NCBI GenBank assembly: GCA_964506795.1
Contig: CAZDMR010000001.1
Span: forward strand, 87,975-151,974
DNA: 64,000 nucleotides
Source: an uncultured Acidobacteriota bacterium
GTDB lineage: Bacteria > Acidobacteriota > UBA6911
Direction: 5' to 3'
Position 1 is the stretch's first letter; each line of letters starts with the position of its first letter. Under the pieces are notes generated by a model. That model saw only the letters and a list, made by a program, of their open reading frames with translations, made no database searches and was not told the DNA's origin. The position numbers and the translations under genes are program-made. Positions 12,587 through 52,796 of this stretch are shown here, piece after piece.

Positions 12587-12607
12587 AGCGGGCCGGAGTC
12601 TTTCGTT

Positions 12608-29522: not shown

Positions 29523-30836
29523 ATGAAACGCTTCCTGGTTCTTTTAGCTGTGGTTTTTTTGTCCGCTTCCCAGGCTGCTTCGCAACAAGAGGGGCAATGC
29601 ATGGTTTGCCACAAGCTTGTGTCTCCCGGTCTGTACAATCAATGGCACGAATCGCAGCACGCTGTTCACGGCGTGAGCTGTGTGGACTGCCACGGCGCCC
29701 AGCAAGGCGAAGAGGATGCTTTTGAGCATCACGGAGCCTTTATCGCCACGCTTGTAACTCCCCGCGATTGCGGACGCTGCCATACCAAGGAAGCCCGCGA
29801 AGTCCAGAATTCCTATCACGCCTCCGCCGGAGAGATTCTGCATTCGCAGGACGCGTATCTCGCCCACATAGCCGGCGGGCAGCCGGCAGCCGTCGCCGGC
29901 TGCGAAAACTGCCACGGCGCCCGCATTGTCATCGATCCCCATTCGCCCAACAGGCTTTCGAAAAAATCGTGGCCCAACTCCGGCATCGGGCGCATAAATC
30001 CCGACGGATCTAAAGGATCCTGCAGCGCCTGCCATACCCGCCATAATTTTACGAAGTCCCAGGCCCGCCAGCCGGAAAGCTGCTCCAAATGCCATCTCGG
30101 CCCCGATCATCCCCAAAAGGAGATCTACGAGGAGTCCAAACACGGCAATACCTATTACACAAATGTCAAAAAAATGAACTTGGATGCCGATCCGTGGGTG
30201 GTCGGGAAGGATTATTATGCCGCTCCAACCTGCGCGACCTGCCATATGTCCGCGACCTCCGTTCTGAAATCATCGCACGACGTCGGAGACAGAATCAGCT
30301 GGACCCTGCGGCCCGCGGTTTCCGTCCACAAGGATAATTGGCTCGCCAAGCGCGAGAATATGTTCACCGTCTGCCAATCATGCCATGGAAGCTCCTTTGC
30401 CAAGGGACATTATTACCAGTACGATGCCCTGGTTCGGCTCTATAACGGCAAGTTCGCGGAACCGGCGGCGGAGATCATGAAGCTTATCAGGGCTCAGAAG
30501 CTTCTGGAGAATCCGGCGGAATTCGGCAATAAAATAGAGTGGACCTATTATGAATTATGGCATCACGAAGGACGGCGGGCGCGGCACGGCGCGGCCATGA
30601 TGGGTCCGGACTACACCTGGTGGCATGGCATTTATGAAGTCGCCCAGCATTTTTATTTCAAATTCCTTCCGGAGGCGCGCGCATTCAACGATCCGAAAGT
30701 AAACGCGGCCATTGAAAAGCTTTTGAAAGAAGATCCCATGCATCAATGGCTGTCGCGCGATACCGAAACTCTTAAAAAAGCAATTCGCTCCGGCGACTTG
30801 CAGAAACAATACGACAAACTGTTCCAACAGGACTGA
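29523..30836 (+). CDS. Octahaem c-type cytochrome, secreted
   Basis: A signal peptide and 8 CxxCH motifs in 437 aa (CMVCH, CVDCH, CGRCH, CENCH, CSACH, CSKCH, CATCH, CQSCH). Confidence 0.85.
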   Translation: MKRFLVLLAVVFLSASQAASQQEGQCMVCHKLVSPGLYNQWHESQHAVHGVSCVDCHGAQQGEEDAFEHHGAFIATLVTPRDCGRCHTKEAREVQNSYHASAGEILHSQDAYLAHIAGGQPAAVAGCENCHGARIVIDPHSPNRLSKKSWPNSGIGRINPDGSKGSCSACHTRHNFTKSQARQPESCSKCHLGPDHPQKEIYEESKHGNTYYTNVKKMNLDADPWVVGKDYYAAPTCATCHMSATSVLKSSHDVGDRISWTLRPAVSVHKDNWLAKRENMFTVCQSCHGSSFAKGHYYQYDALVRLYNGKFAEPAAEIMKLIRAQKLLENPAEFGNKIEWTYYELWHHEGRRARHGAAMMGPDYTWWHGIYEVAQHFYFKFLPEARAFNDPKVNAAIEKLLKEDPMHQWLSRDTETLKKAIRSGDLQKQYDKLFQQD

Positions 30837-30843
30837 CAACCCC

Positions 30844-32424: not shown

Positions 32425-33763
32425 CGCTTAAAACCAGAGAAGCGCTGTTAACCGGACGCGGTTCGCAGGAGTAGGAGGGAAGTTCCATCAGTTTGGCCAC
32501 GGAACTGGGCACCAGGCTGTAATAAAGCGTCGCCGATATGTTTACTTGCTGCGCGGAAAGCTCCTTGGGAACATTCCATGTATAGGTTTCCACTTTGGTT
32601 TCCATCGGCCCTATGCGATAGTCGATTTCGTTGTTTTTCGCCGTGAACCATTGGCAAATGGTCATCCGGCCCTGCGGATCGAAATACGGCCGCCGGAAAA
32701 TGCGGGATCCGTCAGGCACGTCCCCGTCGCGGAGAACTCCTTTATATCCGGGCGCGTCCATGATTTCTCCCATGGCCTGGTAGGCGAGGGCGTTGGAATC
32801 AGCGATGGTGAACTCTTCGCCGGGGAACCCTTTCTTATCAACGGGAATGCGATAGACGCGGCCCTCATGGTCCTTTCCTTGGACCTCCAGCCACAGCATC
32901 CTTTCTTCAGAGGATCCCGAGGGGATAAAGTGCCCGGCTTTGCCGTTATAAAGCACGGCCCGGATTACGACTTTGGACCCAGCCTTCACTTCGCTTTTGT
33001 CTGCGTATAGCGCTAGGTCTACGCTTCCTTTCAACTTTTGGCTGAAATGGGGGCCGTGAAATACATGATGGGCGATATCGTCCCTTTGTTTTCCGCCGAC
33101 GGACGATTTGCCCGGAGCATGGTGCATATGGCAATCCTGGCACCTGATCCCCTGCCCGGCGTACGGACTCGCCTTCCATTCCCGATAGGTTTCCTTAACC
33201 CAGGCGCCGTAAGGACTTTTCTCGTCATGGCAGGTGGCGCACAACTCGGGGCTCGCCGTAAAAGCCGAATATTCTGTTTCGTGAAACCGCGATTCTGCGT
33301 CCTTGCGGACCCCGTATTTTGTTTTGCCGGGATTTACCGTATAGCTGAAGTTGAAAGGCTCTTTTCCCGAGGACCCCGTCATGCTGTGGCACACGTCGCA
33401 GCTGACCCCCTCGTTGACACGGGTGCCTGCGGCGGGCGGCTTCGGCGGGATGTCGCCGGTCAAAAAAGCGAGCGGTCCGTGGCAAGCAATGCAATCCGAT
33501 TTAACTCCGGCGACTTTTTCGAGCTTGAACGCATGGGGCAAAGCCAGCTTGAAATACTCTGCGTCATCCCACGGATGAGTAAAGGATTGGGACATCAGGC
33601 TCTGTTGCCACTCCTGATAAATTTCCTTGTGACAGGCGCCGCATTGCATCGGTTTGCTGAAATCGTCGTAGGCAAAGTCCGCCTTTTCCGCAGCCTGCCA
33701 GGAAGGCAGGCCTATAAAAATCAAGGCGGCCGCCAAACCGAATGACAGCCATGTCCTTTTCAT
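32417..33763 (-). CDS. Pentahaem c-type cytochrome, secreted
   Basis: A signal peptide (MKRTWLSFGLAAALIFIGLPSWQA) and 5 CxxCH motifs. The start at ATG 33763 follows GGAGGGGG. The 3-prime end overlaps the convergent cytochrome gene by 8 nt. Confidence 0.8.
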   Translation of the reverse strand: MKRTWLSFGLAAALIFIGLPSWQAAEKADFAYDDFSKPMQCGACHKEIYQEWQQSLMSQSFTHPWDDAEYFKLALPHAFKLEKVAGVKSDCIACHGPLAFLTGDIPPKPPAAGTRVNEGVSCDVCHSMTGSSGKEPFNFSYTVNPGKTKYGVRKDAESRFHETEYSAFTASPELCATCHDEKSPYGAWVKETYREWKASPYAGQGIRCQDCHMHHAPGKSSVGGKQRDDIAHHVFHGPHFSQKLKGSVDLALYADKSEVKAGSKVVIRAVLYNGKAGHFIPSGSSEERMLWLEVQGKDHEGRVYRIPVDKKGFPGEEFTIADSNALAYQAMGEIMDAPGYKGVLRDGDVPDGSRIFRRPYFDPQGRMTICQWFTAKNNEIDYRIGPMETKVETYTWNVPKELSAQQVNISATLYYSLVPSSVAKLMELPSYSCEPRPVNSASLVLSVK

Positions 33764-33830
33764 AATCCCCCTCCAAGGCTTGACCCGCATTATTCATGAA
33801 CCTTCTGCCGCGGTTCGCGGAATAAGCGGT

Positions 33831-35237
33831 TTAATCGATTCGCACCGCATCCCCGTAATGAGGAACGAGCACCGACAACCCTTTTTCTCTGGCGAGAAAT
33901 TCTCCGTACTTCGCCGCCGCTTCTTCCTCGCCGTGGGTGATGAATACGCGTTTCGGATTTGGCGTGATCGCGGAAAGCCATCTGACGAGCTCGTCCCTGT
34001 CCGCATGGCCGGAGAATCCGCCGATCTGGGCGATACGGGCACGGACGTCGTGATTGCGGCCGAAAATGCGGACGCTTTTGGCTCCGTCAAGAATATGCCG
34101 GCCGAGGGTGCCGATGGCCTGATAGCCGACAAACAGGATGGTGGATTCCGGCCGTTCAATGTTGTTGGAAATATGATGCTTGATGCGGCCGCCCGTGGCC
34201 ATGCCGGAGCCGGCGATGATCATGGAACTCTTTTTGAGGTAGTTGAGGCGCTTGGATTCGTCCGTAGTCTCGACCATCTTGAGGCCGGGGAAATCAAAGG
34301 GGGATCGGCCGGTTTTCAGAAAGTCCCTCATTTCCTTATCGAAGAGATACTCGTGGCGCTTGAATACCTCGGTAATCCGGATGGCCATCGGACTGTCCAG
34401 ATAGACGTCGAGAGGTCCGATGCGGCCCTTTATGAGCAGATCATTCAAATAGTAAAGGATCTCCTGCGCGCGCTGCAGGGCGAAGCTGGGGACGATGAGG
34501 TGGCCTCCGGCTTTAACCGTGCTTGTGACGATCTCGGCAAGCTCTTCGCCGACATCGCGGCCGTCCCTATGGTTTCGATCTCCATAGGTGGACTCGGTGA
34601 CTACGTAGTCGGGGCTGTGAAAAGTATGGGGATCTTCCAACATGGGCCGGTCCCAGCGGCCGATATCCCCTGAAAAGATGATGCTGCGTTCATCCACGCC
34701 TTCTCTAATGACGATCTTGATCATGGAGGAGCCGAGAACATGGCCTGCATCATGGAATGTCGCTGTGACCCCTTCCGCGACAGCGACCGGAACGTCGTAA
34801 TCAACGGTCTCGAAGAAAGGGAAAGTCCGCTCGGCGTCTTCAGAAGTATAAAGAGGAACTTCCGGGTGCGGACCCCGGCGGCCTTCACGAAGGTGCCGTT
34901 TCTTCTTGTAGGCGGCGTCTTCTTCCTGGAGTTTTGCGGAATCCAGGAGGATTATTTTGGCGATGTCCCCTGTTGCGGGGGTGCAGATAATACGGCCTCT
35001 GAATCCCTCCGCCACCAGCTTTGGAAGCATTCCGCAATGGTCCAGATGGGCGTGTGTGACGAGAACAGCGGCGAGCTCCGATGGCGGAACGCGGAACTTT
35101 TCCCAGTTCCGATGCCGGAAGTCCCTTTCCTGATGCATGCCGCAGTCGACAAGGAATCGTACGTTTTCGGTTTCTAAGAGGTAGCGGGAGCCCGTCACGT
35201 TGCGGGCGGCGCCGCAGAAAGTCAGTGTTATGCTCAT
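33831..35237 (-). CDS. MBL-fold beta-CASP ribonuclease (RNase J / CPSF-like)
   Basis: The HxHxDH motif (THAHLDHCG) and beta-CASP motifs are present. The start at ATG 35237 follows AAGGATAG. Confidence 0.8.
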   Translation of the reverse strand: MSITLTFCGAARNVTGSRYLLETENVRFLVDCGMHQERDFRHRNWEKFRVPPSELAAVLVTHAHLDHCGMLPKLVAEGFRGRIICTPATGDIAKIILLDSAKLQEEDAAYKKKRHLREGRRGPHPEVPLYTSEDAERTFPFFETVDYDVPVAVAEGVTATFHDAGHVLGSSMIKIVIREGVDERSIIFSGDIGRWDRPMLEDPHTFHSPDYVVTESTYGDRNHRDGRDVGEELAEIVTSTVKAGGHLIVPSFALQRAQEILYYLNDLLIKGRIGPLDVYLDSPMAIRITEVFKRHEYLFDKEMRDFLKTGRSPFDFPGLKMVETTDESKRLNYLKKSSMIIAGSGMATGGRIKHHISNNIERPESTILFVGYQAIGTLGRHILDGAKSVRIFGRNHDVRARIAQIGGFSGHADRDELVRWLSAITPNPKRVFITHGEEEAAAKYGEFLAREKGLSVLVPHYGDAVRID

Positions 35238-35369
35238 GTCTCTATCCTTTGCGGCGCCCATCATAGCACAGCAACGCGCCGAAACCTAAAAATGGGCGAT
35301 GCGCGGAGGGAGACACGCCGACTCAATGCTTGCCTGCGCCGTCAACGGAAGAAAAACACGCCGGTCCCA

Positions 35370-36338
35370 TCAAAAGGGGCAGTATGTTTCACATAGGAAT
35401 TGGGAAATATCAGAAACGTTTGCGCTGCTGCCTGATGCCGCTTGCCTCAGGTTCACCAGGCATATGGGGCACATGGTGACGATGCGGTCCCCCACGGCGG
35501 TCAGCTGTTCCACGCGCTGCTTGGCGATTCTGTGTGCCTCGCTCGGGAACAGAGTTTCAACAGGGCCGCCGCAGCAGAATGTATTGCGGCCCGAATACTC
35601 CAAATCAGGAAGCCCGGCGCCGGCTTTGCGCAGCAAATCCCGAGGCTGCTCCACCATATCCTCATAACGCGCATAGACGCAGGAATCATGCACGACCACG
35701 TCGGCGTCCAGCTTGCGCAACGTGCTTAATTTGCGTTCCGCAAGAACTTCAATATAGCTTTGCACTTGCAGATTAAAATCCTCGACCGTCGACGGGAAAA
35801 CGCTTCTGAGCATATTTGTGGTGTGCGGATCCACCGTTATCACGCGCTTCACATTATGCTTTTTGAACAGTTGATGGACCTTGAGCGCATGTTCCTTGAA
35901 AGCGGCCATGATTCCTTCGTCGTAAGCCAGCGTCCCCAGATAGAGTTCCTCGTCGTACAAATAACCGAAATCAACGTCGGCCGCTCTCAGAAGGAGGGCG
36001 ATCTTGCGGAGCAATTCGTTGAATTCCGCCTCATCCTTTGAAGACACCATCAAAGGCGTCAACATTGAAAAATCGGCGATCTTGTTCGCAGCCCGCCCTA
36101 TTCCGGAGAGGCGGGTGATCGAGGAATTCTCAAACCGAGCCGTTAATTTCCCAAGGGCGAGAAGGGAAGGCATCAACTGATACATGTGGCCCGTATATAT
36201 AATCGTTCTGCCGCCGACGGGGATATCCAGTCCTTTAGCCCAAGCCGTCAGCGCCCGCGAGGGAAGCGGTAAAATACTCCCCCGCTTTCTCAGATTATCC
36301 GCCAGTATTCCCAGAATCGTTCCAGTCGGTAAAGGCAT
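35370..36338 (-). CDS. HdrB/GlpC-like CCG-domain protein (first CCG domain degenerate, second intact)
   Basis: The C-terminal CCG domain is intact (HDSCVYARYEDMVEQPRDLL...GRNTFCCGGP). The N-terminal repeat keeps the fold signature but has no Cys (TIIYTGHMYQLMP). Confidence 0.7.
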   Translation of the reverse strand: MPLPTGTILGILADNLRKRGSILPLPSRALTAWAKGLDIPVGGRTIIYTGHMYQLMPSLLALGKLTARFENSSITRLSGIGRAANKIADFSMLTPLMVSSKDEAEFNELLRKIALLLRAADVDFGYLYDEELYLGTLAYDEGIMAAFKEHALKVHQLFKKHNVKRVITVDPHTTNMLRSVFPSTVEDFNLQVQSYIEVLAERKLSTLRKLDADVVVHDSCVYARYEDMVEQPRDLLRKAGAGLPDLEYSGRNTFCCGGPVETLFPSEAHRIAKQRVEQLTAVGDRIVTMCPICLVNLRQAASGSSANVSDISQFLCETYCPF

Positions 36339-36340
36339 AG

Positions 36341-36649
36341 CTAAGTCTCTAAACTATATAACTTCCTATTGATATAACAGCGAAGGCATCTCACATTATC
36401 AGCGATGTGCACTTTCGCAGGGCAGTTTTCTTCGCACATTTTGCAGAGCAGACATGAAAAGACAGTCTCCGTGTTCTCTAAAATCTTGTCTTCCAAGCCA
36501 AGCAGTGCGTAACGAAACAAGCGCCTGGGAAGGAGATTGAATCCGACCGGGCAAACCGCGGTGCAAACTCCGCAGTGCATGCAGGCGGAAGCGTTGAAAT
36601 CTTCGGAACACTTCATTTCATCCAGAAACGATGAGTTTACTTTTGCCAT
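36341..36649 (-). CDS. HdrC-like 2x[4Fe-4S] ferredoxin
   Basis: CMHCGVCTAVCP and CLLCKMCEENCP motifs in 102 aa. Lies 2 nt upstream of the CCG protein. Confidence 0.8.
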   Translation of the reverse strand: MAKVNSSFLDEMKCSEDFNASACMHCGVCTAVCPVGFNLLPRRLFRYALLGLEDKILENTETVFSCLLCKMCEENCPAKVHIADNVRCLRCYINRKLYSLET

Positions 36650-36658
36650 GGTGGCTTT

Positions 36659-36907
36659 CTATTCCTTTTCCTTTGCCTGGTAAAAGCAGTAACCGTTTTC
36701 GTCCGGGTCCCCTTTTTCCTCCACAAGCCCGTATCTCCACATCCCCATTATCCACATCGTCACTTCGCGGGAAGGGGCTCCGAGAGTTTGCGCAATTTCC
36801 GGGATGGTCATTGCTTTTTTGTTGATGATAGAGAGGATGGCGTCTTTCATGACCATTTCATCTCTCATGATTTCGGAAATCTCGCGGTTTGTCTGATTAG
36901 TGCTCAT
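36659..36907 (-). CDS. Small (82 aa) winged-helix-like protein of unknown function inside the Hdr-like operon (DsrD-like fold is possible)
   Basis: The ORF is tightly packed between hdrA-like and hdrC-like genes, with 9-10 nt gaps on each side. It has a helix-turn-helix-like segment (IPEIAQTLGAPSREVTMWIMGMWRYGLVEE). Confidence 0.5.
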   Translation of the reverse strand: MSTNQTNREISEIMRDEMVMKDAILSIINKKAMTIPEIAQTLGAPSREVTMWIMGMWRYGLVEEKGDPDENGYCFYQAKEKE

Positions 36908-36916
36908 CGTATCTTC

Positions 36917-38629
36917 CTACGCTAATGCATCGATTGTCGCCGTGATCTGCTTATCCGTGTAACCCTTCAGATCAATGGCATCCTGGGGGCAGACCGGGAT
37001 ACAGGCCCCTCCGCCTTTGCATAGACTGCTGTCTATCCGGGCAACTTCCTTGTCTCCGGCGGCAATCTTCGTTATGGCATCATACTGGCAGGCGGCGACG
37101 CATTCGCCGCACCAGGTGCATTTTTCAGCATCCACTTCGGCGATAAAAGGATCGAGATCGACATAACCTTTCATCAATAACCCGGCGCTCTTGGAAGCGG
37201 CGGATAAGGCCGACGCAACACTTTCGGGCAGATTCTTTGGCCCCTGCGCGGTTCCGGCGATAAAAATTCCATCCACGACCGTTTCCACCGGCCTGAGCTT
37301 GGGATGGATTTCATTAAAGAAGCCGTCCTTGCCCACCGGCAATTTCAGAACATCGATGAGTTCTTCATTCTTTCTCGGAACCATGCCGACAACGAGCACC
37401 ACCATATCGGCGGGAATCTCCACATCCTCACCCGATAGAAGCCGATCCGATACGGTGACGCAAAGCTTTCCGTTCGCGCGTTTGACCACAGGCGGTTTAT
37501 CCGGCTCGTAACAGAGGAACGCGGATCCTTTGGCGCACGCTTCGTCGTAAAGCAGTTCATATTGGCCGTAGGTCCGCATATCCCGATAAAGGTGGAACTG
37601 ATGTATGTCCGGATCCGCCTTGTGAGCGCATAGCGCCGTGTGCACGGTGGTCGTACAGCAGTATCTGGAGCAGTAAAGGTTTTTCCCTCCTTCATTGGGA
37701 TTCTGCCTGCTTCCAACACAGTAGATATAGACGATGTCCTTAACGCGGCGGCCGTTATACATGATGGCGCCGTCGGATTTATCGATTAATTCGCGAAATT
37801 CCGGGAGCAACAGAACTCCCTCTTCGCCGTAGCCGTATTCCCCTTTGGCCGGCTGGTAAACCTCAAATCCGGTGGTAACGACGATGGCTCCCACATTCAG
37901 CTGCAACGAGTCGTTGTCCGGCAGTTTTATTTTTACGGCGAAATTGCCGATGCTGCCTTTCTTTTCCACGACCTCCGCGTTGGTAAAAACGGTTACGTTT
38001 TCGTTCCCGCTTATTTGTTCCTTCAGTTTTCCGATGATTTCGAATCCCAGCTTGTCGTGTGGGAACATTCTTCCCCACTTTGCCGTCCAACCGCCGACTT
38101 GCCCTGTTTTTTCAACAACAAACACATGCAATCCGAGATCGGCCAACGCCAAAGCGGAGCGCAATCCGGCGACTCCTCCCCCGACGACAAGCACCTTGGG
38201 AGTGGTCTCCATCCTAAAACTGCTGAGAGGTTCGCTGTTGCGGCATCGGGCGATACCCGCCCTGACAAGATGGATGCCTTTTTCGGTAGCGTGCTCGCGT
38301 TCCGCCCGATGAACCCAGGAGCATTGTTCCCTCAAATTAACCTGCACATACATATAGGGATTGAGCCCCGCCCGTTCAGCCGCGCCCCTGAACGTATACA
38401 GATGGAGCTTAGGAGAGCAGGAAGCAACCACCATGCCGTCCAGCTTTTCGGAATTGATATCGTCGATGATTTCTTGCTGCGCGGCGTCGGAACAGGTGAA
38501 CATGCTCGTTTTGGCGAGAACGACTCCCTCTTCGTTCTTGACCGCATCCCGCACTTTCTCCACGTCTACATAGTCCGAAATGTTTCCGCCGCAATGGCAG
38601 ATGTAAACGCCTATCCGTCTTTGATTCAT
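36917..38629 (-). CDS. hdrA: HdrA-like flavoprotein (N-terminal CxCG 4Cys cluster, FAD domain, C-terminal 2x[4Fe-4S])
   Basis: IGVYICHCGGNIS...CSPKLH matches the HdrA N-terminus. The FAD motif VLVVGGGVAGLRSA is present. C-terminal ferredoxin motifs are CTWCGECVAACQ and CKGGGACIPVCP. Confidence 0.75.
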   Translation of the reverse strand: MNQRRIGVYICHCGGNISDYVDVEKVRDAVKNEEGVVLAKTSMFTCSDAAQQEIIDDINSEKLDGMVVASCSPKLHLYTFRGAAERAGLNPYMYVQVNLREQCSWVHRAEREHATEKGIHLVRAGIARCRNSEPLSSFRMETTPKVLVVGGGVAGLRSALALADLGLHVFVVEKTGQVGGWTAKWGRMFPHDKLGFEIIGKLKEQISGNENVTVFTNAEVVEKKGSIGNFAVKIKLPDNDSLQLNVGAIVVTTGFEVYQPAKGEYGYGEEGVLLLPEFRELIDKSDGAIMYNGRRVKDIVYIYCVGSRQNPNEGGKNLYCSRYCCTTTVHTALCAHKADPDIHQFHLYRDMRTYGQYELLYDEACAKGSAFLCYEPDKPPVVKRANGKLCVTVSDRLLSGEDVEIPADMVVLVVGMVPRKNEELIDVLKLPVGKDGFFNEIHPKLRPVETVVDGIFIAGTAQGPKNLPESVASALSAASKSAGLLMKGYVDLDPFIAEVDAEKCTWCGECVAACQYDAITKIAAGDKEVARIDSSLCKGGGACIPVCPQDAIDLKGYTDKQITATIDALA

Positions 38630-41334
38630 CTATTCGCTCTCATTCTTTCCACGTATATGGCGGCCTGCACCGCCGCGGCTCCTGCATGGGCGATGGTATC
38701 GGGAATATCGCGCGCAGCCGTGGCCGAGCCGGCGGCAAAAACGCCTTCAATACTTGTCTGTCCCGGGTTGACATCCGCCTGTGTTTCCCGGACCCAGCCG
38801 CCCTCATCCGTTTCAAGGGCTTCGCTTTTAAAGACCCCAACGGCGCTGGTATCGGGAAGCAGTCCCACAGACAGAACAACCAGATCGTGCTCCGCCTGTT
38901 TCAAGCTTCCTTCTCCGCCGATGTCCTCGTAATGGACGATGAGATTGCCCCCTTTGGTTTCTTCTATCCTGGCGACTCTGCCCTTCGTCATATTGACTCC
39001 CATCGCTTTCGACTGTTCGTAAAACTCGTCGTAACCCTTGCCGAAGGCGCGGATGTCGATATAGTAAATGGTAACTTCCGCGAGAGGGAGCGCTCCCATA
39101 ATAAGCTGCGCCTGTTTGAGGGAATACATGCAGCATACCCTCGAACACTGGCGATTATTTACGGTGTAATCGCGAGAACCGGTGCAAAGCACGTAGGCGA
39201 TGTTATCCGGCATTTTGCCGTCCGACGGGCGAAGCACCCGGTTATAGGGACGCGTCGGGGCCAGGATACGATCCATCTGCATGGCCGTGATCACATTCGG
39301 ATAGCGCCCGTAACCGTAAGGTTTTTTCAGGGATGCGTCAAAAAGCTGAAATCCCGTCGAGATGATCACGCTGCCGGCTTCTGCGATTTCCTCTTTATCC
39401 TGCATATCGAATTCAATGGCATTCGCGGGACAGGCGCGGACGCACTCGCCGCATTCCGAACAGGATCCGCAGTCAAGGCATCGCGAGGCATTATAACGGG
39501 CATCTTCTTCGCTTAGCGTGGATTCGACCTCGGCAAAACTCCGCGACCGCTCAGCGGCCGGCAACAGCGCCGCCGCCCTGGACGGCTTCAAAGAAATCGA
39601 CTTCCAGCGCGCGATAACCGATTCCCTGTCCACAGCGGGCAAAGGCTCGAAATAGGCGTCCTCCAGAGGCTCTCCCCGCATCTGCCGGTCCATGAAAAAA
39701 GCCGCTCTTTTACCCTGGCCGATTGCGTCGATAATCATAGACGGTCCGGTAACATTGTCCCCGCCGGCAAAAACCGAGGGCATTGAAGTTTCCAGCGTTT
39801 TTTCATTTACCTTGATGGTTCCATTGCGATTCAATTCAAGCTCGCCGCGAAACGGCGAAGTCGTCGGCTTGAGCCCGATAGCCTTAACGACGATATCCGC
39901 CGCAGTGAGCTGTTCCGAACCTTCAATCGGCACCGGACGGGGCCGGCCTCCGGCATCCGGTTCGCCCAATTTCATCGACAAGCTTTCCACCCCCACCAGC
40001 CGTCCATCTATGCCGATGAAACGATTGGGATTCCTGAGCGTACGAAGCTCCATCCCTTCTTCCAATCCGGCCTCTACTTCCCAGGAATGAGCGGGCATTT
40101 CCGCCCGGCTGCGCCGGTACTCCACAATGACTTTCCGGGCTCCCAAACGGATCGCCACCCTGGCCGGATCCATACAGGCATTCCCTCCTCCGACCAGGAG
40201 TACGGTCTTCCCCTTAACATGGGACATTTTTCCTTCAAACGCCGCCTTGAGGAAAGACATGCAATCCATGACCCCTTCCAAGTCTTCGCCGGGCAGGGAC
40301 ATCCTCTGCGGTTCCCAGGCGCCGACCGCCACAAAAACGGAGTCAAACCCTTGCTCCTGCAAATCTTTCAAAGAGCTAACAGGAGAATTGGTGCGGATAG
40401 CAACCCCAAGAGCGGTAATGTTTTTGATATCTCTATCCAGCACACGCTTCGGCAGCCTGTATTCCGGGATTCCGTACCGCAACACGCCGCCCGCATGCTC
40501 CTGCGATTCGAAAATGGTAACTTGATATCCGCGCCTCGCCAGATGGTAAGCGGCCGAAAGCCCGGCCGGGCCCGATCCCACAACGGCCACCTTCTTGTCC
40601 AGGCGCTTTTCGGGGATTCCGTACTCCGGTTCCGGATGCCGTTGATAGTAATAGTCCACCATGAAACGTTTGATGGCCCGGATGGAGACCGTGCCGTCCA
40701 GAGCGGCGCGCGTGCAGTTTTGCTCGCATGGCGCGTAACAAGCCCTGCTTAGAGTGCCGGGGAGCGGCGCGTCTTCCATGTGAAGGCGGAATCCCTCCTC
40801 GTATTTTCCGCTTCGGACCAGGGAGACAAAACCATGGGCCTTGACTCCCGCCGGACAGGCAAAAGTGCACGGCGAGGTACCCTGCCGGTCCAGGATTGCT
40901 TTTTTCGGCACCGCCTGGGAGTATGGGATATAGGCCGCGCGCCGAGCCACCAATTGGAAATTAAACTGGTCGGGGACGGCAACCGTACAGGCTTCTTCGC
41001 ACTTTGAACACCCGGTGCATGCCGACGGATTCACATAAGTCGGCTTCTTGCGAATTTTTATGATAAATTCCCCGTTCGCCCTTTTGGCTATCTCTTTGAC
41101 TTCCGAATAAGTCAGGGTCGTAATGTTCGGGTGGTGGCTGGTGGCCGCCATTTTGGGCGTGGAAATGCAACTCGCGCAATCCAGCGTGGGGAAAACCTTG
41201 CTTAGAAGCACCATTTTGCCCCCGATACTGGCATCTTTTTCCACCAGCAACACCTGATACCCCATATCTCCCAAAGTCAGAGCCGACTCCATGCCGGCTA
41301 TGCCTCCGCCGACGATTAGCATGTCATGCTTCAT
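38626..41334 (-). CDS. HdrA-like FAD protein with an inserted GltD/NfnB-like NAD(P)H-binding module and a ferredoxin domain (902 aa natural fusion)
   Basis: The HdrA N-terminal half (MLIVGGGIAGMESA...DCASCIS) is followed by a GltD-like 2-cluster region (CTFACPAG, CYAPCEQNC) and a second Rossmann motif VAVVGSGPAGLSAAYHLARRG...GGVLRYGIPEYRLPK. Then comes a 2x4Fe4S domain (CLDCGSCSECGECVRACP), then the HdrA C-terminal half (CSRVCCMYS...GVFAAGSATAARDIP). Overlaps the downstream hdrA start by 4 nt. Confidence 0.75.
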   Translation of the reverse strand: MKHDMLIVGGGIAGMESALTLGDMGYQVLLVEKDASIGGKMVLLSKVFPTLDCASCISTPKMAATSHHPNITTLTYSEVKEIAKRANGEFIIKIRKKPTYVNPSACTGCSKCEEACTVAVPDQFNFQLVARRAAYIPYSQAVPKKAILDRQGTSPCTFACPAGVKAHGFVSLVRSGKYEEGFRLHMEDAPLPGTLSRACYAPCEQNCTRAALDGTVSIRAIKRFMVDYYYQRHPEPEYGIPEKRLDKKVAVVGSGPAGLSAAYHLARRGYQVTIFESQEHAGGVLRYGIPEYRLPKRVLDRDIKNITALGVAIRTNSPVSSLKDLQEQGFDSVFVAVGAWEPQRMSLPGEDLEGVMDCMSFLKAAFEGKMSHVKGKTVLLVGGGNACMDPARVAIRLGARKVIVEYRRSRAEMPAHSWEVEAGLEEGMELRTLRNPNRFIGIDGRLVGVESLSMKLGEPDAGGRPRPVPIEGSEQLTAADIVVKAIGLKPTTSPFRGELELNRNGTIKVNEKTLETSMPSVFAGGDNVTGPSMIIDAIGQGKRAAFFMDRQMRGEPLEDAYFEPLPAVDRESVIARWKSISLKPSRAAALLPAAERSRSFAEVESTLSEEDARYNASRCLDCGSCSECGECVRACPANAIEFDMQDKEEIAEAGSVIISTGFQLFDASLKKPYGYGRYPNVITAMQMDRILAPTRPYNRVLRPSDGKMPDNIAYVLCTGSRDYTVNNRQCSRVCCMYSLKQAQLIMGALPLAEVTIYYIDIRAFGKGYDEFYEQSKAMGVNMTKGRVARIEETKGGNLIVHYEDIGGEGSLKQAEHDLVVLSVGLLPDTSAVGVFKSEALETDEGGWVRETQADVNPGQTSIEGVFAAGSATAARDIPDTIAHAGAAAVQAAIYVERMRANR

Positions 41335-41764
41335 TAGATTTTTCCTTCGCGTCGGCTTCGAGAAGCCTTAACGAGTTCTTAAAATTTTCCATATGGGATA
41401 CAAAAGACTCCGCGCAAACAGAACAAATGGCCGCCATTTTAACCCGCTGCGCGCTGTGTCCATTTTCTTCAAGAAGCTTTTGCGCCCTTTGCGTCAAGGC
41501 GGCCGTCCGTTCGGTGCAGTCCTGGGTATACACGCAATCGCTTCCATCCGCCGCAATGAACACGCCGTCGAATCCCGCATTTACAGCGCGGAGGACCCAA
41601 CTCGGCTTTATGCTGCTTGAACAACGCAACGGTATGACAAACACCGAAGGCGAATAATGCAAGTGAGAGCTTCCGGCTAAATCAATCCCGGGATCCGAAA
41701 TTGTCTCCGTCGAGAACACAAGGATCTTGGGATCTTTCCCCTCGCTCTTTTCCCCTTCCGCCAT
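41324..41764 (-). CDS. MvhD/FlxD-like domain protein lacking the canonical first Cys pair
   Basis: KILVFSTETISDPGIDLAGSSHLHYSPSVFVIPLRCSSS...GFDGVFIAADGSDCVY aligns with MvhD (KIVVFACNWCSYAGADTAG...VMCSGR...GADGVLVGGCHFGDCHY). The CNWC pair is replaced by STET, and one of the two distal Cys is Ala. Confidence 0.6.
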   Translation of the reverse strand: MAEGEKSEGKDPKILVFSTETISDPGIDLAGSSHLHYSPSVFVIPLRCSSSIKPSWVLRAVNAGFDGVFIAADGSDCVYTQDCTERTAALTQRAQKLLEENGHSAQRVKMAAICSVCAESFVSHMENFKNSLRLLEADAKEKSNEA

Positions 41765-42018
41765 TACTTTCCTTTCTTTACGAATATTCGCGAATAACCT
41801 GCTTCCTCGATGGCTCCCAAATATTCATGGCCGACCTTTTTGGCCCATAGGGGGATATCCCTCTTAGTGCTCGCATCGGAAGAGAGCACTTCCATAACGC
41901 CCCCCACGGGAACCGCGGCGATGGATCGTTTTGCTTCCAGCAAAGGCCCCGGGCAAGCAGTCCCCCGGGCATCAACTTTTTGGGCGACTGTCAGACTTGC
42001 AAGTTCTTGTGTGTCCAT
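41764..42018 (-). CDS. tusA: TusA-family sulfurtransferase
   Basis: VDARGTACPGPLLEAKRSI carries the TusA CPxP active-site motif. 84 aa. The stop overlaps the start of the MvhD-like gene as ATGA. Confidence 0.85.
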   Translation of the reverse strand: MDTQELASLTVAQKVDARGTACPGPLLEAKRSIAAVPVGGVMEVLSSDASTKRDIPLWAKKVGHEYLGAIEEAGYSRIFVKKGK

Positions 42019-42112
42019 GATGACTCTCCATTTCTTTTAATGGATTAAAGGTTTTTTTACGCTTTTTTTACGTACTGTAATGAATTACGCCGTATGCATG
42101 CCACACGTTGAA

Positions 42113-42475
42113 TTAGGTGAAGGTTAAGACAGTATCCGCCTGCATCGCGCCGTTCACAAAAGTCGCCACTCCGCCGCATTCGATTCCGGGGATGAGATCT
42201 TCTTCGGTGCAATTGACAATGGGAAATGCCGCAGAACAGGCAATCATCCTAACGCCGCCTTCCTGGAGAATCTTGATGTACTCCGGAAGAGTTTTGGCCG
42301 CGCCCATCAGGGTAATATGCTCGGCGCCGCCTTTTCTTATAATGTTCAATCCATGCATGGTGAAGAACATCGTCACTTCCACATCCAACGCCAGCGCTCC
42401 CGCAGCTAACATGAAAGGAGGGAACGCTCTTTGGGGATTGTCCGAACCGCAAAAAATCCATAATGTTTCTGCCAT
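42113..42475 (-). CDS. DsrE/DsrF-family sulfur-relay protein
   Basis: 120 aa DsrE fold with a conserved Cys (RMIACSAAFPI). Confidence 0.7.
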   Translation of the reverse strand: MAETLWIFCGSDNPQRAFPPFMLAAGALALDVEVTMFFTMHGLNIIRKGGAEHITLMGAAKTLPEYIKILQEGGVRMIACSAAFPIVNCTEEDLIPGIECGGVATFVNGAMQADTVLTFT

Positions 42476-42497
42476 GTATTCTCTCCAAGTCTTGGAA

Positions 42498-42923
42498 TTA
42501 CGAGTCGGCGGACGCTTTTTCTCTGCCTGACTCCTTCCTTATTTTCGTGCCGCCGCGCGCTTTTTGGGTCTGCCGGAGCACCCATAAACGATCCCTCTTT
42601 CTCCTGGGATGATCCGCGCGCAGCAACGCGATCAAGCTTCGCACAAGCGTCGGCCGAACGATGTAGTAACAGCGCAATGAGCCGGAAATGCAAAAATCCA
42701 CCAATTGCGCTTTTCGCAAAGCCGCCATATGTTGTGAGAAGTGAGGCTGAACCACGGGAACCAAGCTGTTGAGATCCTTGACGCATCTGGGGCTTTCGCT
42801 CAACGAGTTGAGAATCATCAGTCGAACAGGATGAGAAATCAAGCGAAGCAATTCAGCGGGTTCGCGCCATTGATCAACTGGAACCGTCGAATGGATCACT
42901 TCTTCCATATCTTTTCCATACAT
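42498..42923 (-). CDS. ArsR/SmtB-family transcriptional regulator
   Basis: The HTH block LRLISHPVRLMILNSL...VKDLNSLVPVVQPHFSQHMAALRKAQLV is typical of ArsR. Three Cys are present (PRCVKDL, DFCISGSLRCYY). Confidence 0.85.
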   Translation of the reverse strand: MYGKDMEEVIHSTVPVDQWREPAELLRLISHPVRLMILNSLSESPRCVKDLNSLVPVVQPHFSQHMAALRKAQLVDFCISGSLRCYYIVRPTLVRSLIALLRADHPRRKRDRLWVLRQTQKARGGTKIRKESGREKASADS

Positions 42924-42947
42924 ATTATCTAATATAAGACTGCGATT

Positions 42948-42957
42948 ATATAATATT
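42948..42957. promoter_or_regulatory. Perfect 10-bp palindrome ATTATATAAT in an AT-rich region ~25 nt upstream of the ArsR start; candidate operator
   Basis: The sequence is its own reverse complement. It sits in the 268-bp AT-rich intergenic region between arsR (start 42923) and dsrE. Confidence 0.3.
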
Positions 42958-43162
42958 TTTTTAATAAGCCAAGAAAATTTTTCGGGCGCCTCATTCCAAA
43001 GAATCGGGCCCCATGAATCACGAAACCCGCCGCGCGCGCCCGCGCGCTTGCGCTTCGCGAATTTCCCGCGGCGGCCGAAATTTCGGAATCAAGGGAGCCG
43101 GGCCTTTTTTTATGCGGCCTGGGCGGGGCCGATAGGGGCCCCGCCGGCCTTGGGGCCCGTCG

Positions 43163-43190
43163 TTAAAGCGGATTATTCACGGGGGCCGAG
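43163..43190. repeat. Repeat-family copy (TTAAAGCGGATTATTCACGGGGGCCGAG) directly downstream of the dsrE stop
   Basis: Matches the family core GGATTATTCACG. Confidence 0.45.
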
Positions 43191-43191
43191 G

Positions 43192-43563
43192 TTAAAAGGA
43201 AATTATTTTATCGGCTTCGCTGATTTCCTCATGCACGCTGATCGCCGATCCATCCAAAGTGCCTTCCACCATATCCTCCCCGCTCAGGCCGCGAGCCTTA
43301 ATACAGGGCCCGCAATAAATAACTTTCCCTCCGTCGGAAAGGAAACTATCCATCAACGTATTCAATGGGAGCCTTTCGTCGGCGTGGACCGTTTCCGCGT
43401 ATCCTTTTTTTGCCAGCAAACTGGCATCTCCCAAGAGAATGATGACGACATCGTTTTCCATGGACAGGGCAACGTTGGCAAGCGTGAAACCTATGATGGC
43501 ATCCTCAGCGCGATCGCCGGCGCCCGTTAAAATATACAGGAACTTCTGTTTTTGATCCGACAT
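43192..43563 (-). CDS. DsrE/DsrF-family sulfur-relay protein (second copy)
   Basis: 123 aa with the YILTGAGD... fold signature and an active-site Cys context (VIYCGPCIKARG). Confidence 0.7.
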   Translation of the reverse strand: MSDQKQKFLYILTGAGDRAEDAIIGFTLANVALSMENDVVIILLGDASLLAKKGYAETVHADERLPLNTLMDSFLSDGGKVIYCGPCIKARGLSGEDMVEGTLDGSAISVHEEISEADKIISF

Positions 43564-43659
43564 ATGTTTCCTCCAGGGCGGGCATTATGTCTCATGCAAC
43601 GCGGAATTGACAACCTCTTATGTCCTGAAGAGGCAAATGATGCCCGCGCGGCGGTCCCA

Positions 43660-43692
43660 TTAACCCGGATGATTCACGAGGATTCGCGGCCG
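43660..43692. repeat. Repeat-family copy (TTAACCCGGATGATTCACGAGGATTCGCGGCCG), left end only
   Basis: Shares 28 nt with the copies at 53259 and 61161. Confidence 0.5.
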
Positions 43693-43828
43693 GGCGGCGC
43701 AGGGCGATGGAATCAATCCACGGCGGGAATAGGGAGCAATGGAGCACTTCTCTCTTTTATCATTTTTGTCGAAAGTGTAGAGTGAACGGATTTGATATCG
43801 GAGGCGCAAGAAAACCAAACCCGCATTT

Positions 43829-45931
43829 GTGACAAGCATGAACGATACGCGCACTCGAAAAGCAAACAACCATTCCGGGCGATTCCTGTGCCTGGCCGCA
43901 CCCGCGCTGACCGCGTTATTATGGGCGGCGGCCGCCTTCGCGACCGACAGCCGCCCCGTTCATATAGTGTCCGCAGGAGACACGCTTTCCGAGATCGCCG
44001 AACGCCACGGCATTACGGTGGCAAATCTGAGGGAATGGAACGGCCTGAGGTCGGACCGCATATTGAGGGGACAGCGCCTCTTTTTGGCGGCCGAGCCGGA
44101 TGGCGGAACCGTGCCCGCGGACGATTCGCAGAATGAGGATGATACGGATGCGGCCGGTATGCCGAGCGGACCGGCTGCCTATACGGTGCGTTCCGGAGAC
44201 ACTCTCGGCGACATCGCCCGCGCACACAGCCTGCCGATCAACACGATTAAGGACATCAACGAGTTAGAGGGCGACCGGATTTATCCGGGCCAGGTGCTTC
44301 GGCTTCGAGATCCCAAGCCGTCCGCAGCGGGCGCAGGCGAAGCATCGCCCGCGGATGAAGCCTTCCAGGAAGACTACATCGTTCAGCGCGGGGATACGCT
44401 TTCGCACATCGCACAGCGATTCGACGTCAGCATTTCCCTATTGAAGCGCCTGAACAGCATGCGCGGGAGCCGCATATACGCGGGCCAAAAGCTCAAGCTG
44501 CGGCCCGCAACCGGACGCGACCGCGGATTCCACATTGTTCTGAGCGGCGAAACCCTGTCCGAGATCGCCGAATGCTACGGCATCCCCGTGAAAACGCTGC
44601 AGGAGATCAACGGCATTGAAGGGAGCGCTATATTCGCCGGCCAGCGGCTTCTCCTTCGCGCCGTCTCCAAAACGGTACACATTGTGGAGCCGGGCGATGC
44701 CTTATCGGAGATCGCCCAAACGTATGGAATGCGCGTGACTGAATTGATGGCCCTCAACGGCCTTAAATCCAGCCGCATTTATCCCGGGCAGGAGTTGAAG
44801 CTTTCCGATCCCGCGGCCGGCCGCTTGACGACATATACGGTCTGCCCCGGAGATTCGCTCATTGAGATTGCGCAGCTGCACCGCATGACCCTGCCTGAAT
44901 TGAGGAATCTGAACGATATCCGCGGATCCGTGATCCATCCGGGGCAGATACTCAAGGTCCGGCCGATTCTCGGCCGGGGAGAGCATCCGCTTCCTCTTCT
45001 GACCCCTGAAGAGATTGATTGGTCCGCATTCAACGTTGCCCTTGCGGACATGCCTCGGCTCGATTGCGGCAACGGGCCGTATTACGGCTACGCCCCCCGC
45101 GTCGGCGAGCAGAACGGGTGCGATTACCTGGAGGAAAGTCCTTCGCGGCCTCTCACCTGTTACCGCCGCGCCCGCCGGCTATTTGAAGCGTTTGAGCGGG
45201 AAGTCGAGGCCATAGGCCGCCTCAGCCGGAAGCTTGAAGGATGGCATATCGTACTGGATCCCGGCCACGGCGGAATCGATCCGGGCACCATTACAAGGAC
45301 CACGGACGGGACGGGAAAACCCGTTTACGTCGTCGAAGACGAGTACGTTTACGACATTACCTTGCGCGTCTACGTTCTGTTGAAGCTGCACGGAGCGAAT
45401 GTGACACTCACGATTCTCAGCCCCAACCACCTCATCCGCCGCTCGGATCCGCCGACGCAGACGTTCGTCCATCAACGCGACGAAGTTTACAACAGCGAAA
45501 CGCTCAACCGCAAAAACGGCGATAAGCAATGGCCGATAGGGGGGCGCCGGGGCCTGGAAGCCAGGGTCCGGCTTGCCCGGGAAGCTTTCAGGAATGTACC
45601 CTCAAGCCGCCGAATTTTTCTGTCCATCCACGCCGACAACAGCCCGAATACGCCGAACGTCCCGGTGGTGCTTTATTATTCCAGCTCGAAATACACCGAC
45701 CGCAAGTCCCGCAGCTTCGCCCGCGCCCTGCTGCCGGCTTTGGGGGCGGGAGCCCAAATCCGAGCACAGCGCCTGGCGGTTTTACGGGACAACCCGGCTT
45801 CGTATAAAGTTCTGGTGGAAATACGGAACATGGTCCATCCGGACCACTCATGGGCTCTGCGGTTCGAAGAACTGAGACAGCGCGACGCCGAGAAAATCGT
45901 CCGAGGATTATTGGATTGGGTCTCGCGGTAA
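43829..45931 (+). CDS. N-acetylmuramoyl-L-alanine amidase with six LysM repeats
   Basis: A signal peptide, six LysM repeats (HIVSAGDTLSEIA..., YTVRSGDTLGDIA..., etc.), and a C-terminal Amidase_3 domain (HIVLDPGHGGIDPG). Confidence 0.85.
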   Translation: MTSMNDTRTRKANNHSGRFLCLAAPALTALLWAAAAFATDSRPVHIVSAGDTLSEIAERHGITVANLREWNGLRSDRILRGQRLFLAAEPDGGTVPADDSQNEDDTDAAGMPSGPAAYTVRSGDTLGDIARAHSLPINTIKDINELEGDRIYPGQVLRLRDPKPSAAGAGEASPADEAFQEDYIVQRGDTLSHIAQRFDVSISLLKRLNSMRGSRIYAGQKLKLRPATGRDRGFHIVLSGETLSEIAECYGIPVKTLQEINGIEGSAIFAGQRLLLRAVSKTVHIVEPGDALSEIAQTYGMRVTELMALNGLKSSRIYPGQELKLSDPAAGRLTTYTVCPGDSLIEIAQLHRMTLPELRNLNDIRGSVIHPGQILKVRPILGRGEHPLPLLTPEEIDWSAFNVALADMPRLDCGNGPYYGYAPRVGEQNGCDYLEESPSRPLTCYRRARRLFEAFEREVEAIGRLSRKLEGWHIVLDPGHGGIDPGTITRTTDGTGKPVYVVEDEYVYDITLRVYVLLKLHGANVTLTILSPNHLIRRSDPPTQTFVHQRDEVYNSETLNRKNGDKQWPIGGRRGLEARVRLAREAFRNVPSSRRIFLSIHADNSPNTPNVPVVLYYSSSKYTDRKSRSFARALLPALGAGAQIRAQRLAVLRDNPASYKVLVEIRNMVHPDHSWALRFEELRQRDAEKIVRGLLDWVSR

Positions 45932-50059: not shown

Positions 50060-50099
50060 ATCTCCGATGCCCGGGCGGCTTTTCGCCGCCGTCCCGGCT

Positions 50100-51308: not shown

Positions 51309-51376
51309 ATTCCTCTCTCCATACCGGACGCTGTCCGAGAATGAATCTCCGGGTCCGTCATCGCCCGATTTCTTCG

Positions 51377-52747: not shown

Positions 52748-52796
52748 AGCGCCACCGAAAAAGATAATTTGGATTCTATTTTCGAGAAATTTTGAC

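Follow-up and report, generated by a model that had tools for sequence, protein, structure and literature searches.

In the HdrA flavoprotein of methanogens, electrons exit by two routes: through the cluster of the flavin adenine dinucleotide (FAD) domain to HdrC and HdrB, and through an N-terminal cluster and an inserted ferredoxin domain to ferredoxin (PMC9012536). The Qmo complex exists as QmoABC or as QmoAB-HdrBC, and a 'type II' Qmo that is close to HdrA occurs both in organisms that have Dsr and Apr and in others that lack them, its role being unknown (Neukirchen et al., PMC10504309). In anaerobic methanotrophic archaea of the ANME-1 group, HdrA9-11 carry an NfnB insertion of the kind described below, and tandem HdrA paralogues there display the complementarity of N-terminal domain and Cys197 that is the signature of heterodimeric HdrA pairs (Chadwick et al., PMC9012536); HdrL of Desulfobacterium autotrophicum is likewise an HdrA-NfnB fusion (PMC12142623). 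Here we describe a locus of ten open reading frames (ORFs), all on the minus strand, in a window of 64,000 nucleotides from an uncultured Acidobacteriota bacterium (assembly GCA_964506795.1, contig CAZDMR010000001.1, positions 87,975 to 151,974). The locus spans positions 35370-43563 of that window (Table 1) and joins two HdrA-type flavoproteins, HdrL and HdrA, to sulfur carriers of the TusA and DsrE families. Our favored explanation, to which we assign a probability of about 0.4, is that it encodes an oxidoreductase that links NADP(H) to the sulfane sulfur carried by TusA and DsrE, operating most likely in the reductive direction. We infer that the locus is the soluble version of a widespread multi-flavin/iron-sulfur (FeS) complex, built from Hdr/Qmo parts and dedicated to sulfur borne by TusA and DsrE.

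The gene arrangement is far beyond chance, since 80 loci distributed over many phyla repeat it. A species-level scan (one genome per species) returned at least 557 loci with a gene for an HdrL relative, and the best 80 were examined as related loci; their six-frame ORFs were searched with the window proteins, and only loci with enough flank were scored. These loci represent more than ten phyla overall, with Acidobacteriota, Gemmatimonadota, 'Deltaproteobacteria', other Proteobacteria, Actinomycetota, Chloroflexota, Bacteroidota, Verrucomicrobiota/Kiritimatiellales and Bacillota among the bacteria and Thermoplasmata among the archaea. MvhD lies directly upstream of HdrL, and TusA immediately before mvhD, in every assessable locus (71/71 for each). 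A second HdrA follows HdrL in all 61 loci that could be assessed, an HdrC-type domain is present in 60 of the 61, and the 82-aa protein is encoded as a separate gene in 49 of them. The conserved core is TusA-MvhD-HdrL-HdrA-winged helix-HdrC domain. A same-strand ArsR-type gene stands upstream of the cluster less regularly (23/49), and orthologues of the first dsrE are found directly after hdrB or qmoC, or before tusA. One independent genome of 3.8 Mb carries the order ArsR-TusA-FlpD-fusion-HdrA-79 aa-HdrC-CCG-DsrE, and HdrL itself has thousands of full-length relatives (about 900-930 aa, 60-72% identity). A sequence-only reading of this DNA had set beforehand a lack of shared synteny between the TusA/DsrE genes and the redox genes in relatives as the result that would overturn it; the linkage instead proved strong, for TusA as given above and for a DsrE-like gene in 43/49. 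In three of the related loci a large gene is broken into two or three ORFs (HdrL in L042, at 10067-12730; HdrA in L020 and L007), which could reflect frameshifts in metagenome-assembled genomes (MAGs) or in-frame TGA (selenocysteine) codons.

HdrL consists of a thioredoxin-reductase-type FAD domain and an inserted ferredoxin domain that is itself split by a module of about 500 aa resembling NfnB and GltD, in agreement with the earlier proposal that an NAD(P)H-binding GltD module sits inside one HdrA. Its matches in the PDB include HdrA (5odc_A, 364 bits) and T. maritima NfnB (4ylf_B, 293 bits), and the solved structures nearest to the insert are bifurcating NfnB/Stn-type modules (9n5u, 8oh5, 4ylf), not glutamate synthase. 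By sequence assignment, the module holds two [4Fe-4S] clusters, FAD and an NADP(H) site with the motif YRR, and because this motif (Y406-R407-R408) is invariant across relatives, we predict that the module binds NADP(H). In NfnB, YRR binds the 2'-phosphate, and it marks the NADP(H)-specific DsrL-2 enzymes, in work that also argues for NADPH as the in-vivo reductant (PMC7596348). The inserted ferredoxin domain still has both of its cysteine motifs, one on each side of the NfnB-like module. HdrL also has an invariant D52-C53-x-S55-C56 motif, in which C53 and C56 form the equivalent of the Cys194/Cys197 pair, and it has neither the N-terminal domain of HdrA nor its C-terminal ferredoxin domain.

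The second flavoprotein supplies what HdrL lacks. Residues 1-235 of HdrA match residues 1-235 of the Methanothermococcus protein (5odc_A), and residues 241-562 match 316-642: What is missing is exactly the inserted ferredoxin domain (5odc_A residues 236-315), along with the Cys194/197 pair. HdrA retains its N-terminal FeS domain, the cluster of its FAD domain and, at the C-terminus, the 2x[4Fe-4S] ferredoxin domain, and this pattern of domains and cysteines holds in 73 orthologues. At residue 540 the window protein has glycine where 55/73 orthologues have the second cysteine of the last ferredoxin motif (CKGGGAC vs. CKGCGxC), and one of its C-terminal clusters may have only three cysteine ligands. 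The best NCBIfam matches of HdrL and HdrA are HdrA2 and HdrA, and the four domains of methanogen HdrA are present only across the two proteins combined. Because they carry complementary halves of a methanogen-type HdrA dimer (i.e., the N-terminal domain in one and the cysteine pair in the other), we predict that HdrL and HdrA form an obligate heterodimer. The cysteines of the MvhD subunit, which the sequence-only reading had also recognized, are conserved in 79 sequences.

The 82-aa protein encoded between hdrA and hdrC belongs to no curated (Pfam) or solved family, showing only sub-threshold winged-helix matches. An AlphaFold2 model (predicted local distance difference test, 84) is a winged helix whose top Foldseek matches are ArsR/SmtB/MarR winged-helix proteins (E about 2e-4), and its profile gathers 378 representative clusters at E<=1e-3, with no conserved cysteine in the family. 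In 13 loci, 12 of them from Bacteroidota, HdrA carries the domain as a C-terminal fusion (hmmsearch E 1e-12 to 1e-17; L033, L034, L036, L038, L040, L045-L047, L051, L054, L057, L061 and L064, of which L051 is the non-Bacteroidota case). We argue, from its gene position and its fusion to HdrA, that this protein is a structural subunit of the complex; a free DNA-binding regulator was considered and rejected, given that the gene lies 9 nt from both neighbors and that the domain is fused to HdrA in those 13 loci. The HdrA proteins of the fusion loci are about 660-750 aa long, and the one sequence inspected, from L064, retains a cysteine-poor remnant at the place of the inserted ferredoxin domain.

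The terminal module comes in two forms. In the window, an HdrC-like protein, which has both of its 4Fe-4S cysteine motifs conserved and matches the N-terminus of qmoC at 31.7 bits, is followed by an HdrB-like subunit that is nearer to EtfD than to HdrB. The latter has two CCG-fold domains and a single CCG cysteine motif (C220, C255, C256, C290, C293), conserved in 26/26 locus orthologues and 27/27 database homologues; none of these sequences has any cysteine in its N-terminal half. The degenerate first domain keeps an invariant H172 (in 'DPHT'), which aligns with His583 in the 'CPHC' of EtfD. In EtfD, His583 completes the coordination of the noncubane cluster, which its authors regard as non-catalytic (PMC13083937). 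A soluble single-CCG protein of this kind is the terminal module in the window and in about 25 loci. In 43/80 related loci, HdrC and HdrB are replaced by a single QmoC-like protein of 350-430 aa, encoded after the winged-helix gene, with an HdrC-like N-terminus and a polytopic membrane domain (NarI/HdrE-type); these loci are L003, L006, L007, L009, L017, L025, L032-L034, L036-L041, L044-L048, L050, L051, L054, L055, L057-L059, L061-L070, L074, L076, L077 and L079-L081. None of the 43 is similar to the window HdrB profile. Three of them were scanned, and each matched NF038018, the qmoC profile, along its whole length with 161-241 bits, short of the equivalog cutoff of 300 bits; the L009 protein has a NarI-type tail too (PF02665). 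The family therefore comprises a membrane/quinone version and a soluble CCG version. One Verrucomicrobia MAG, co234_bin56, carries both, L032 being of the QmoC type and L035 of the HdrC + HdrB type.

Under a reading that we consider improbable, the complex is a Qmo-like electron-transfer module whose true partner lies elsewhere in the genome, as AprAB is the partner for Qmo, and TusA and DsrE are accessories only (e.g., for sulfur supply or thiol maintenance). The pairing of two HdrA paralogues with MvhD and with QmoC or HdrCB mirrors QmoABC and QmoAB-HdrBC, the cluster, His-ligated as in EtfD, could suggest a role in electron transfer only, and 'type II' Qmo has been reported in genomes with or without Dsr/Apr and with an unknown function (PMC10504309). 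Two observations speak against it. The linkage of TusA and DsrE across phyla is much stronger than would be expected of accessory genes. Furthermore, in a survey of +/-10 kb around the 80 loci, in which recurrent families rather than every family were annotated, the only neighbors found in more than four loci were regulators, ABC-type ATPases (9 loci) and rhodanese (5 loci), and no other enzyme gene recurred in more than about 5% of them. No apr, sat or dsr genes were seen among the annotated recurrent families, nor were apr and sat found in the 64-kb window region examined. Genes for a TauE sulfite exporter, thioredoxin, a pyridine-nucleotide-disulfide oxidoreductase and hemerythrin appeared in 3-5 loci each; those occasional neighbors that are sulfur-related (rhodanese, the TauE exporter and thioredoxin) count in favor of a role in sulfur metabolism.

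The carriers themselves point the same way, in that their carrier cysteines are conserved in TusA and in both DsrE types. The TusA motif (DARGTACPGPLL) is conserved in 81 sequences, the Cys84 and Cys87 columns of the first DsrE are conserved among 20 orthologues, and the second DsrE aligns over its full length to DsrE3A (PDB 3MC3, E 3e-8) with the active-site cysteine matched. Against DsrE2 profiles, this second DsrE gives a two-piece match from which about 48 middle profile positions are missing, and related loci usually have a longer, DsrE2-type protein of 155-190 aa at the same position. A second, separate ArsR-TusA-DsrE mini-cluster lies a few kb from the main cluster in L044 (20228-21477), L063 (21617-22903) and L055 (8644-11604), with a TauE sulfite-exporter gene 1-2.5 kb from it in L044 and L063. 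Most cluster-linked ArsR proteins have a conserved cysteine in alpha-5, and often another near alpha-1/2, in a manner reminiscent of the persulfide-sensing repressors of the BigR/SqrR type. The window ArsR, which matches BigR weakly (43.6 bits), is without the alpha-5 cysteine and has three others (C47, C78, C85) and a long basic C-terminal tail.

If the element carried were selenium in place of sulfur, the complex would reduce selenium on its TusA/YedF-like and DsrE-like carriers, an alternative to which we give very little credence. It draws on weak matches of TusA to YedF (25-26 bits) and on partial matches to NF045663 ('dicluster-binding protein near Sec'), given by HdrL, HdrC and HdrB, and to YgfK, given by HdrL. 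TusA scores higher, at 43 bits, on the E. coli-type TusA model, albeit under the equivalog cutoff of 78, and no selD, selA or other selenium genes occur among the annotated recurrent neighbors.

On the methanogen template, the complex would have three ports: NADP(H) on what is usually the ferredoxin branch, the HdrC-linked terminal module, and the MvhD port, which has no attached hydrogenase or dehydrogenase. Judging from the domain order, the NADP(H) module is spliced into the ferredoxin-reducing branch of a methanogen-type HdrA. No hydrogenase, formate dehydrogenase or F420H2 site is present in the cluster or its flanks, or recurs among the annotated neighbors of the 80 loci, and the cluster contains no NfnA/PyrK-like gene (i.e., the [2Fe-2S], FAD and NAD-site partner of NfnB). 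Because the MvhD port is fully conserved and QmoC-type relatives exist, the data suggest a three-partner reaction, either bifurcating or confurcating, over a simple two-partner one.

The sequence-only reading had proposed an NAD(P)H-coupled, possibly electron-bifurcating oxidoreductase. In the style of FlxABCD-HdrABC, NAD(P)H would be the donor and a flavin would send electrons both to free ferredoxin and to a TusA/DsrE persulfide at HdrB. HdrA-type and NfnB-type flavins are both known sites of bifurcation (PMC5861303), and MvhD and HdrABC-like parts are present. The anatomy lends no support to the ferredoxin-coupled form: HdrA is without the inserted ferredoxin domain, and the sole copy, in HdrL, is cut by the NADP(H) module, to which it is presumably connected, leaving no evident free docking branch. 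In addition, going by textbook potentials, the reduction of persulfide (about -270 mV) does not suffice to push electrons from NADPH to ferredoxin, and the CCG subunit is absent from most relatives (43/80). We therefore regard this version as very doubtful.

A different three-partner scheme, rather unlikely in our estimation, runs in the oxidative direction. Sulfide or the sulfane sulfur bound to TusA/DsrE (about -270 mV) would serve as a mid-potential donor, with one electron passing via HdrC to a high-potential acceptor and the other traveling up the former ferredoxin branch to NADP+; for the QmoC-type relatives this acceptor would be quinone, and for the window it would be some disulfide or other partner at the HdrB-like cluster. 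Such wiring would follow the canonical direction of HdrA, placing NADP(H) exactly where ferredoxin is usually reduced. All three ports are conserved (MvhD, the HdrC domain and the NfnB module), the QmoC-type relatives offer a quinone outlet, and the insert of HdrL is nearest to bifurcating NfnB/Stn-type modules. As calculated from textbook potentials, quinone and NADP+ average about -200 mV, so that a -270 mV donor would be adequate. Nevertheless, no catalytic site for the oxidation of sulfide or persulfide is identifiable at the MvhD port, and there is neither sulfite-forming machinery nor LbpA in the cluster or among the annotated recurrent neighbors. Many of the carriers also resemble fermentative anaerobes (e.g., Paludibacter, Bacteroidales and Kiritimatiellales), in which sulfur oxidation would be unexpected. 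Finally, the YRR motif, which indicates NADPH, has been argued to favor reductive use in vivo (PMC7596348).

Our preferred model, NADPH-driven reduction of carrier-bound sulfane sulfur, takes the reductive direction because NADPH is the stronger in-vivo reductant, many carriers are apparent anaerobes, and no oxygen-atom or sulfite chemistry is evident. In this model, NADPH would bind the NfnB-like module and electrons would pass along the FeS wire to the HdrB-like cluster, with MvhD supplying a [2Fe-2S] adaptor and HdrC connecting the flavoproteins to the HdrB/EtfD-like subunit and its single noncubane-type cluster. There, by analogy with DsrK, TusA/DsrE would have their bound persulfide, or else a protein-S-S(n)-protein bridge, cleaved to sulfide. 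Cleavage at a single cluster is plausible because of the precedent of DsrK, whose one noncubane cluster reduces a protein-bound trisulfide, that of DsrC (PMC10861901). The operon, under its ArsR-type regulator, might then serve to dispose of persulfide or S(0), or act as an electron sink.

Several considerations weigh against this model. The link to sulfur is drawn from synteny alone. The HdrB-like protein is without the additional cysteine that is conserved in DsrK, HmcF and TmcB (PMC10861901), and H172 may reduce the HdrB-like cluster to a mere relay. Sulfur cannot be handled at the CCG cluster throughout the family, nor can persulfide reduction at an HdrB site be its conserved mechanism, because 43/80 related loci have no CCG protein and possess a QmoC-like module instead. 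[quoted passage not shown]

The complex could also represent an unrecognized class of flavin-based bifurcating or confurcating enzymes, in which an HdrA heterodimer has NADP(H), in place of ferredoxin, built into its low-potential branch and the third-port partner is TusA/DsrE sulfane sulfur; we hold this to be unlikely. One possibility within this class is that the oxidation of sulfide or persulfide is split between quinone or a disulfide and NADP+, in which case NADPH would be made from sulfide without reverse electron flow. Another possibility is that the oxidation of NADPH is split between quinone and a low-potential sulfur acceptor (e.g., a protein thiosulfonate).

Anaerobic energy conservation depends centrally on complexes of the Hdr/Qmo type, as does the trafficking of sulfur in the cytoplasm on TusA/DsrE relays; the operon described here joins the two. 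Its carriers, numbering at least 557 species-level genomes, include lineages that are not regarded as sulfur specialists, such as Paludibacter-like Bacteroidota, soil Actinomycetota, Chloroflexota and Thermoplasmata. If the complex does perform NADP(H)-dependent redox chemistry on carrier-bound sulfane sulfur, it would constitute a widespread, so far overlooked route for sulfur turnover in the cytoplasm, for persulfide homeostasis or for cryptic sulfur cycling, and an HdrA-type flavin would have a pyridine-nucleotide module in place of its ferredoxin branch.

The organization of the locus bears out the sequence-only reading in most respects: the coordinates of all ten ORFs match, and Pfam and NCBIfam profile searches, which provided the gene identities, confirmed each of the domain assignments. 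Because the spacing from tusA through hdrB ranges only from an 11-nt overlap to a 9-nt gap, these genes almost certainly form one translationally coupled unit, as had been claimed. Of the individual junctions, the hdrL/hdrA overlap is 4 nt, as first read; the supposed ATGA at 41764 is really TAATG, a 1-nt overlap of tusA and mvhD, and the overlap of mvhD and hdrL at 41334 is 11 nt and not 4. Gaps of 9 nt separate the 82-aa gene from both hdrA and hdrC, and hdrC and hdrB are 2 nt apart. Upstream, the spacing is wider, at 94 nt between the second dsrE and tusA and 22 nt between arsR and the second dsrE. The first dsrE lies 268 nt upstream of arsR and, because of this gap and its own promoter-like site, may be a separate transcript. 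An AT-rich inverted repeat of 12 nt (ATATTATCTAAT / ATTATATAATAT, 92% complementary) overlaps the -10-like box and the start codon of arsR and is a plausible candidate operator for the ArsR-type regulator. Since promoter-like and terminator-like sites identified by consensus scans at the locus show no excess over shuffled sequence, transcript boundaries were drawn from gene spacing and cross-locus gene conservation; the same scans found no terminator-like site after hdrB, and an Rfam search of 35000-44000 gave no match.

The flanking genes were considered as parts of the system and rejected. A beta-CASP RNase gene lies downstream, and LysM amidase, Usp and RND efflux genes lie upstream; by Pfam, these and the cytochromes are unrelated, and no matching family is found among the recurrent neighbors of relatives. 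Three cytochrome genes lie past the RNase gene, an adjacency that is not kept in relatives, and a second ArsR-family gene heads an RND efflux operon, adjoined by a tandem-Usp gene.

Table 1. Genes and sites of the locus and its flanks (window coordinates).
Feature	Position	Strand	Assignment
dsrE (first)	43192-43563	-	DsrE, PF02635, 55 bits; 123 aa; C-x-P-C motif
arsR	42498-42923	-	ArsR/SmtB; PF01022 (HTH_5) 37 bits, NF033788 57.6 bits; 141 aa
dsrE (second)	42113-42475	-	DsrE3/DsrE2-like, PF13686, 82 bits; 120 aa; conserved Cys80
tusA	41764-42018	-	PF01206, 69.5 bits; 84 aa; single Cys, in CPGP motif
mvhD	41324-41764	-	MvhD/FlpD-like [2Fe-2S] adaptor; PF02662, 92 bits; 146 aa
hdrL	38626-41334	-	HdrA with GltD/NfnB-like insert; 902 aa
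hdrA	36917-38629	-	HdrA, 384 bits to 5odc_A; 570 aa
Small winged-helix gene	36659-36907	-	82 aa; winged-helix fold (AlphaFold2 model); no curated family
hdrC-like	36341-36649	-	2x[4Fe-4S] ferredoxin subunit, 102 aa; TIGR03290 52.7 bits
hdrB/EtfD-like	35370-36338	-	CCG protein, PF02754, 42 bits, C-terminal half only; 322 aa
Promoter-like site ahead of first dsrE	43613-43584		Consensus match only
Promoter-like site TTGGCT-16-TATAAT and 12-nt inverted repeat	42922-42972	-	Consensus/repeat match only
Inverted repeat	42922-42956		Candidate operator
beta-CASP RNase gene	33831-35264		beta-CASP metallo-beta-lactamase RNase; downstream flank
Three cytochrome c genes	29523-33790		Multihaem or NapC/NirT-type
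Efflux operon	46790-53147		Outer-membrane factor/HlyD-type adaptor/AcrB-type RND
Second ArsR-family gene	52797-53147		Heads the efflux operon

Much of what is seen here has been published piece by piece, i.e., the HdrA-NfnB fusion, HdrA heterodimers, Qmo variants, single-CCG enzymes, and TusA/DsrE relays with sHdr. What is apparently new is the conserved unit TusA/DsrE-MvhD-HdrL-HdrA-winged helix-HdrC(B)/QmoC, of which we could not find any description: A literature search for the TusA-MvhD-HdrA::NfnB cluster, outside which fell the HdrA(BC) review of Appel et al. 2021, returned matches that concerned sHdr, Mvh-Hdr of disproportionators, ANME-1 HdrA-NfnB and DsrL.

The sHdr-LbpA system, with which the sequence-only reading had drawn a parallel, shares the linkage to TusA and a DsrE3-type carrier, a small 'H' protein beside hdrA, and ArsR-type regulation (PMC11094781). 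The parallel is superficial. An sHdr locus has the composition C1B1-A-H-C2B2 (type I) or C1B1AHB3-etfAB-emo (type II), a 349-aa sHdrA and an obligatory LbpA, whereas here there are one HdrC and one HdrB, a long methanogen-type HdrA (570 aa) together with HdrL, MvhD, a direct NADP(H) site, and no etfAB. As had been noted at the outset, no gene for a lipoate-binding protein occurs in the window cluster or its immediate flanks, and none was found among the annotated recurrent neighbor families of the 80 loci. Membership in sHdr was accordingly rejected, neither of its gene sets nor a linked LbpA being present.

Going by published descriptions, FlxABCD-HdrABC of Desulfovibrio is likewise soluble and NAD(P)H-linked, has an MvhD-like subunit and acts on a protein-bound sulfur substrate (DsrC), but its NAD(P)H module, FlxA, is a separate protein, where ours is of the NfnB/GltD type, and its HdrB has two CCG motifs and DsrC as partner, where ours has one motif and TusA/DsrE. 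The proteins DsrK (of DsrMKJOP), HmcF, TmcB and mycobacterial EtfD differ in being membrane-associated and quinone-linked; DsrK-type proteins have the extra catalytic cysteine that the window HdrB-like protein lacks, and the first CCG domain, which in EtfD holds a linear [3Fe-4S] cluster, is without cysteines in the window protein. NfnAB has the same NfnB-type subunit (FAD, two [4Fe-4S] clusters, and an NADPH site with YRR), but the NfnA partner is missing here.

With MvhAGD-HdrABC and the HdrA2B2C2 of Methanosarcina, the locus has in common the HdrA fold and cofactor motifs, MvhD, HdrC and a CCG-fold subunit. It differs in having no hydrogenase or formate dehydrogenase, in splitting HdrA into two complementary paralogues, in placing an NADP(H) module on the ferredoxin branch, and in having one noncubane-cluster motif in HdrB rather than two; moreover, the heterodisulfide of coenzymes M and B (CoM-S-S-CoB) cannot be a substrate in these bacteria. 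The HdrA-NfnB fusions of ANME-1 (HdrA9-11) and D. autotrophicum (HdrL) have the same NfnB-like insertion of about 500 aa in the inserted ferredoxin domain, a likeness by architecture; their contexts involve CoM/CoB or formate, and no TusA/DsrE neighbors are mentioned.

In design, the family looks closer to Qmo (QmoABC or QmoAB-HdrBC) than to sHdr. Both have two distinct HdrA-like flavoproteins and an MvhD-type module, and the two alternative terminal modules of Qmo (i.e., QmoC, in which HdrC is joined with a membrane cytochrome b, or HdrC plus HdrB) both occur in the family. The differences are that MvhD is separate here and fused to QmoB in Qmo, that one flavoprotein here contains an NfnB-type NADP(H) module and there is an extra winged-helix subunit, and that the conserved neighbors are TusA/DsrE in place of AprAB/Sat. 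Redox chemistry on carrier-bound sulfur would provide a candidate function for the 'type II Qmo-like' genes of organisms that have neither Dsr nor Apr.

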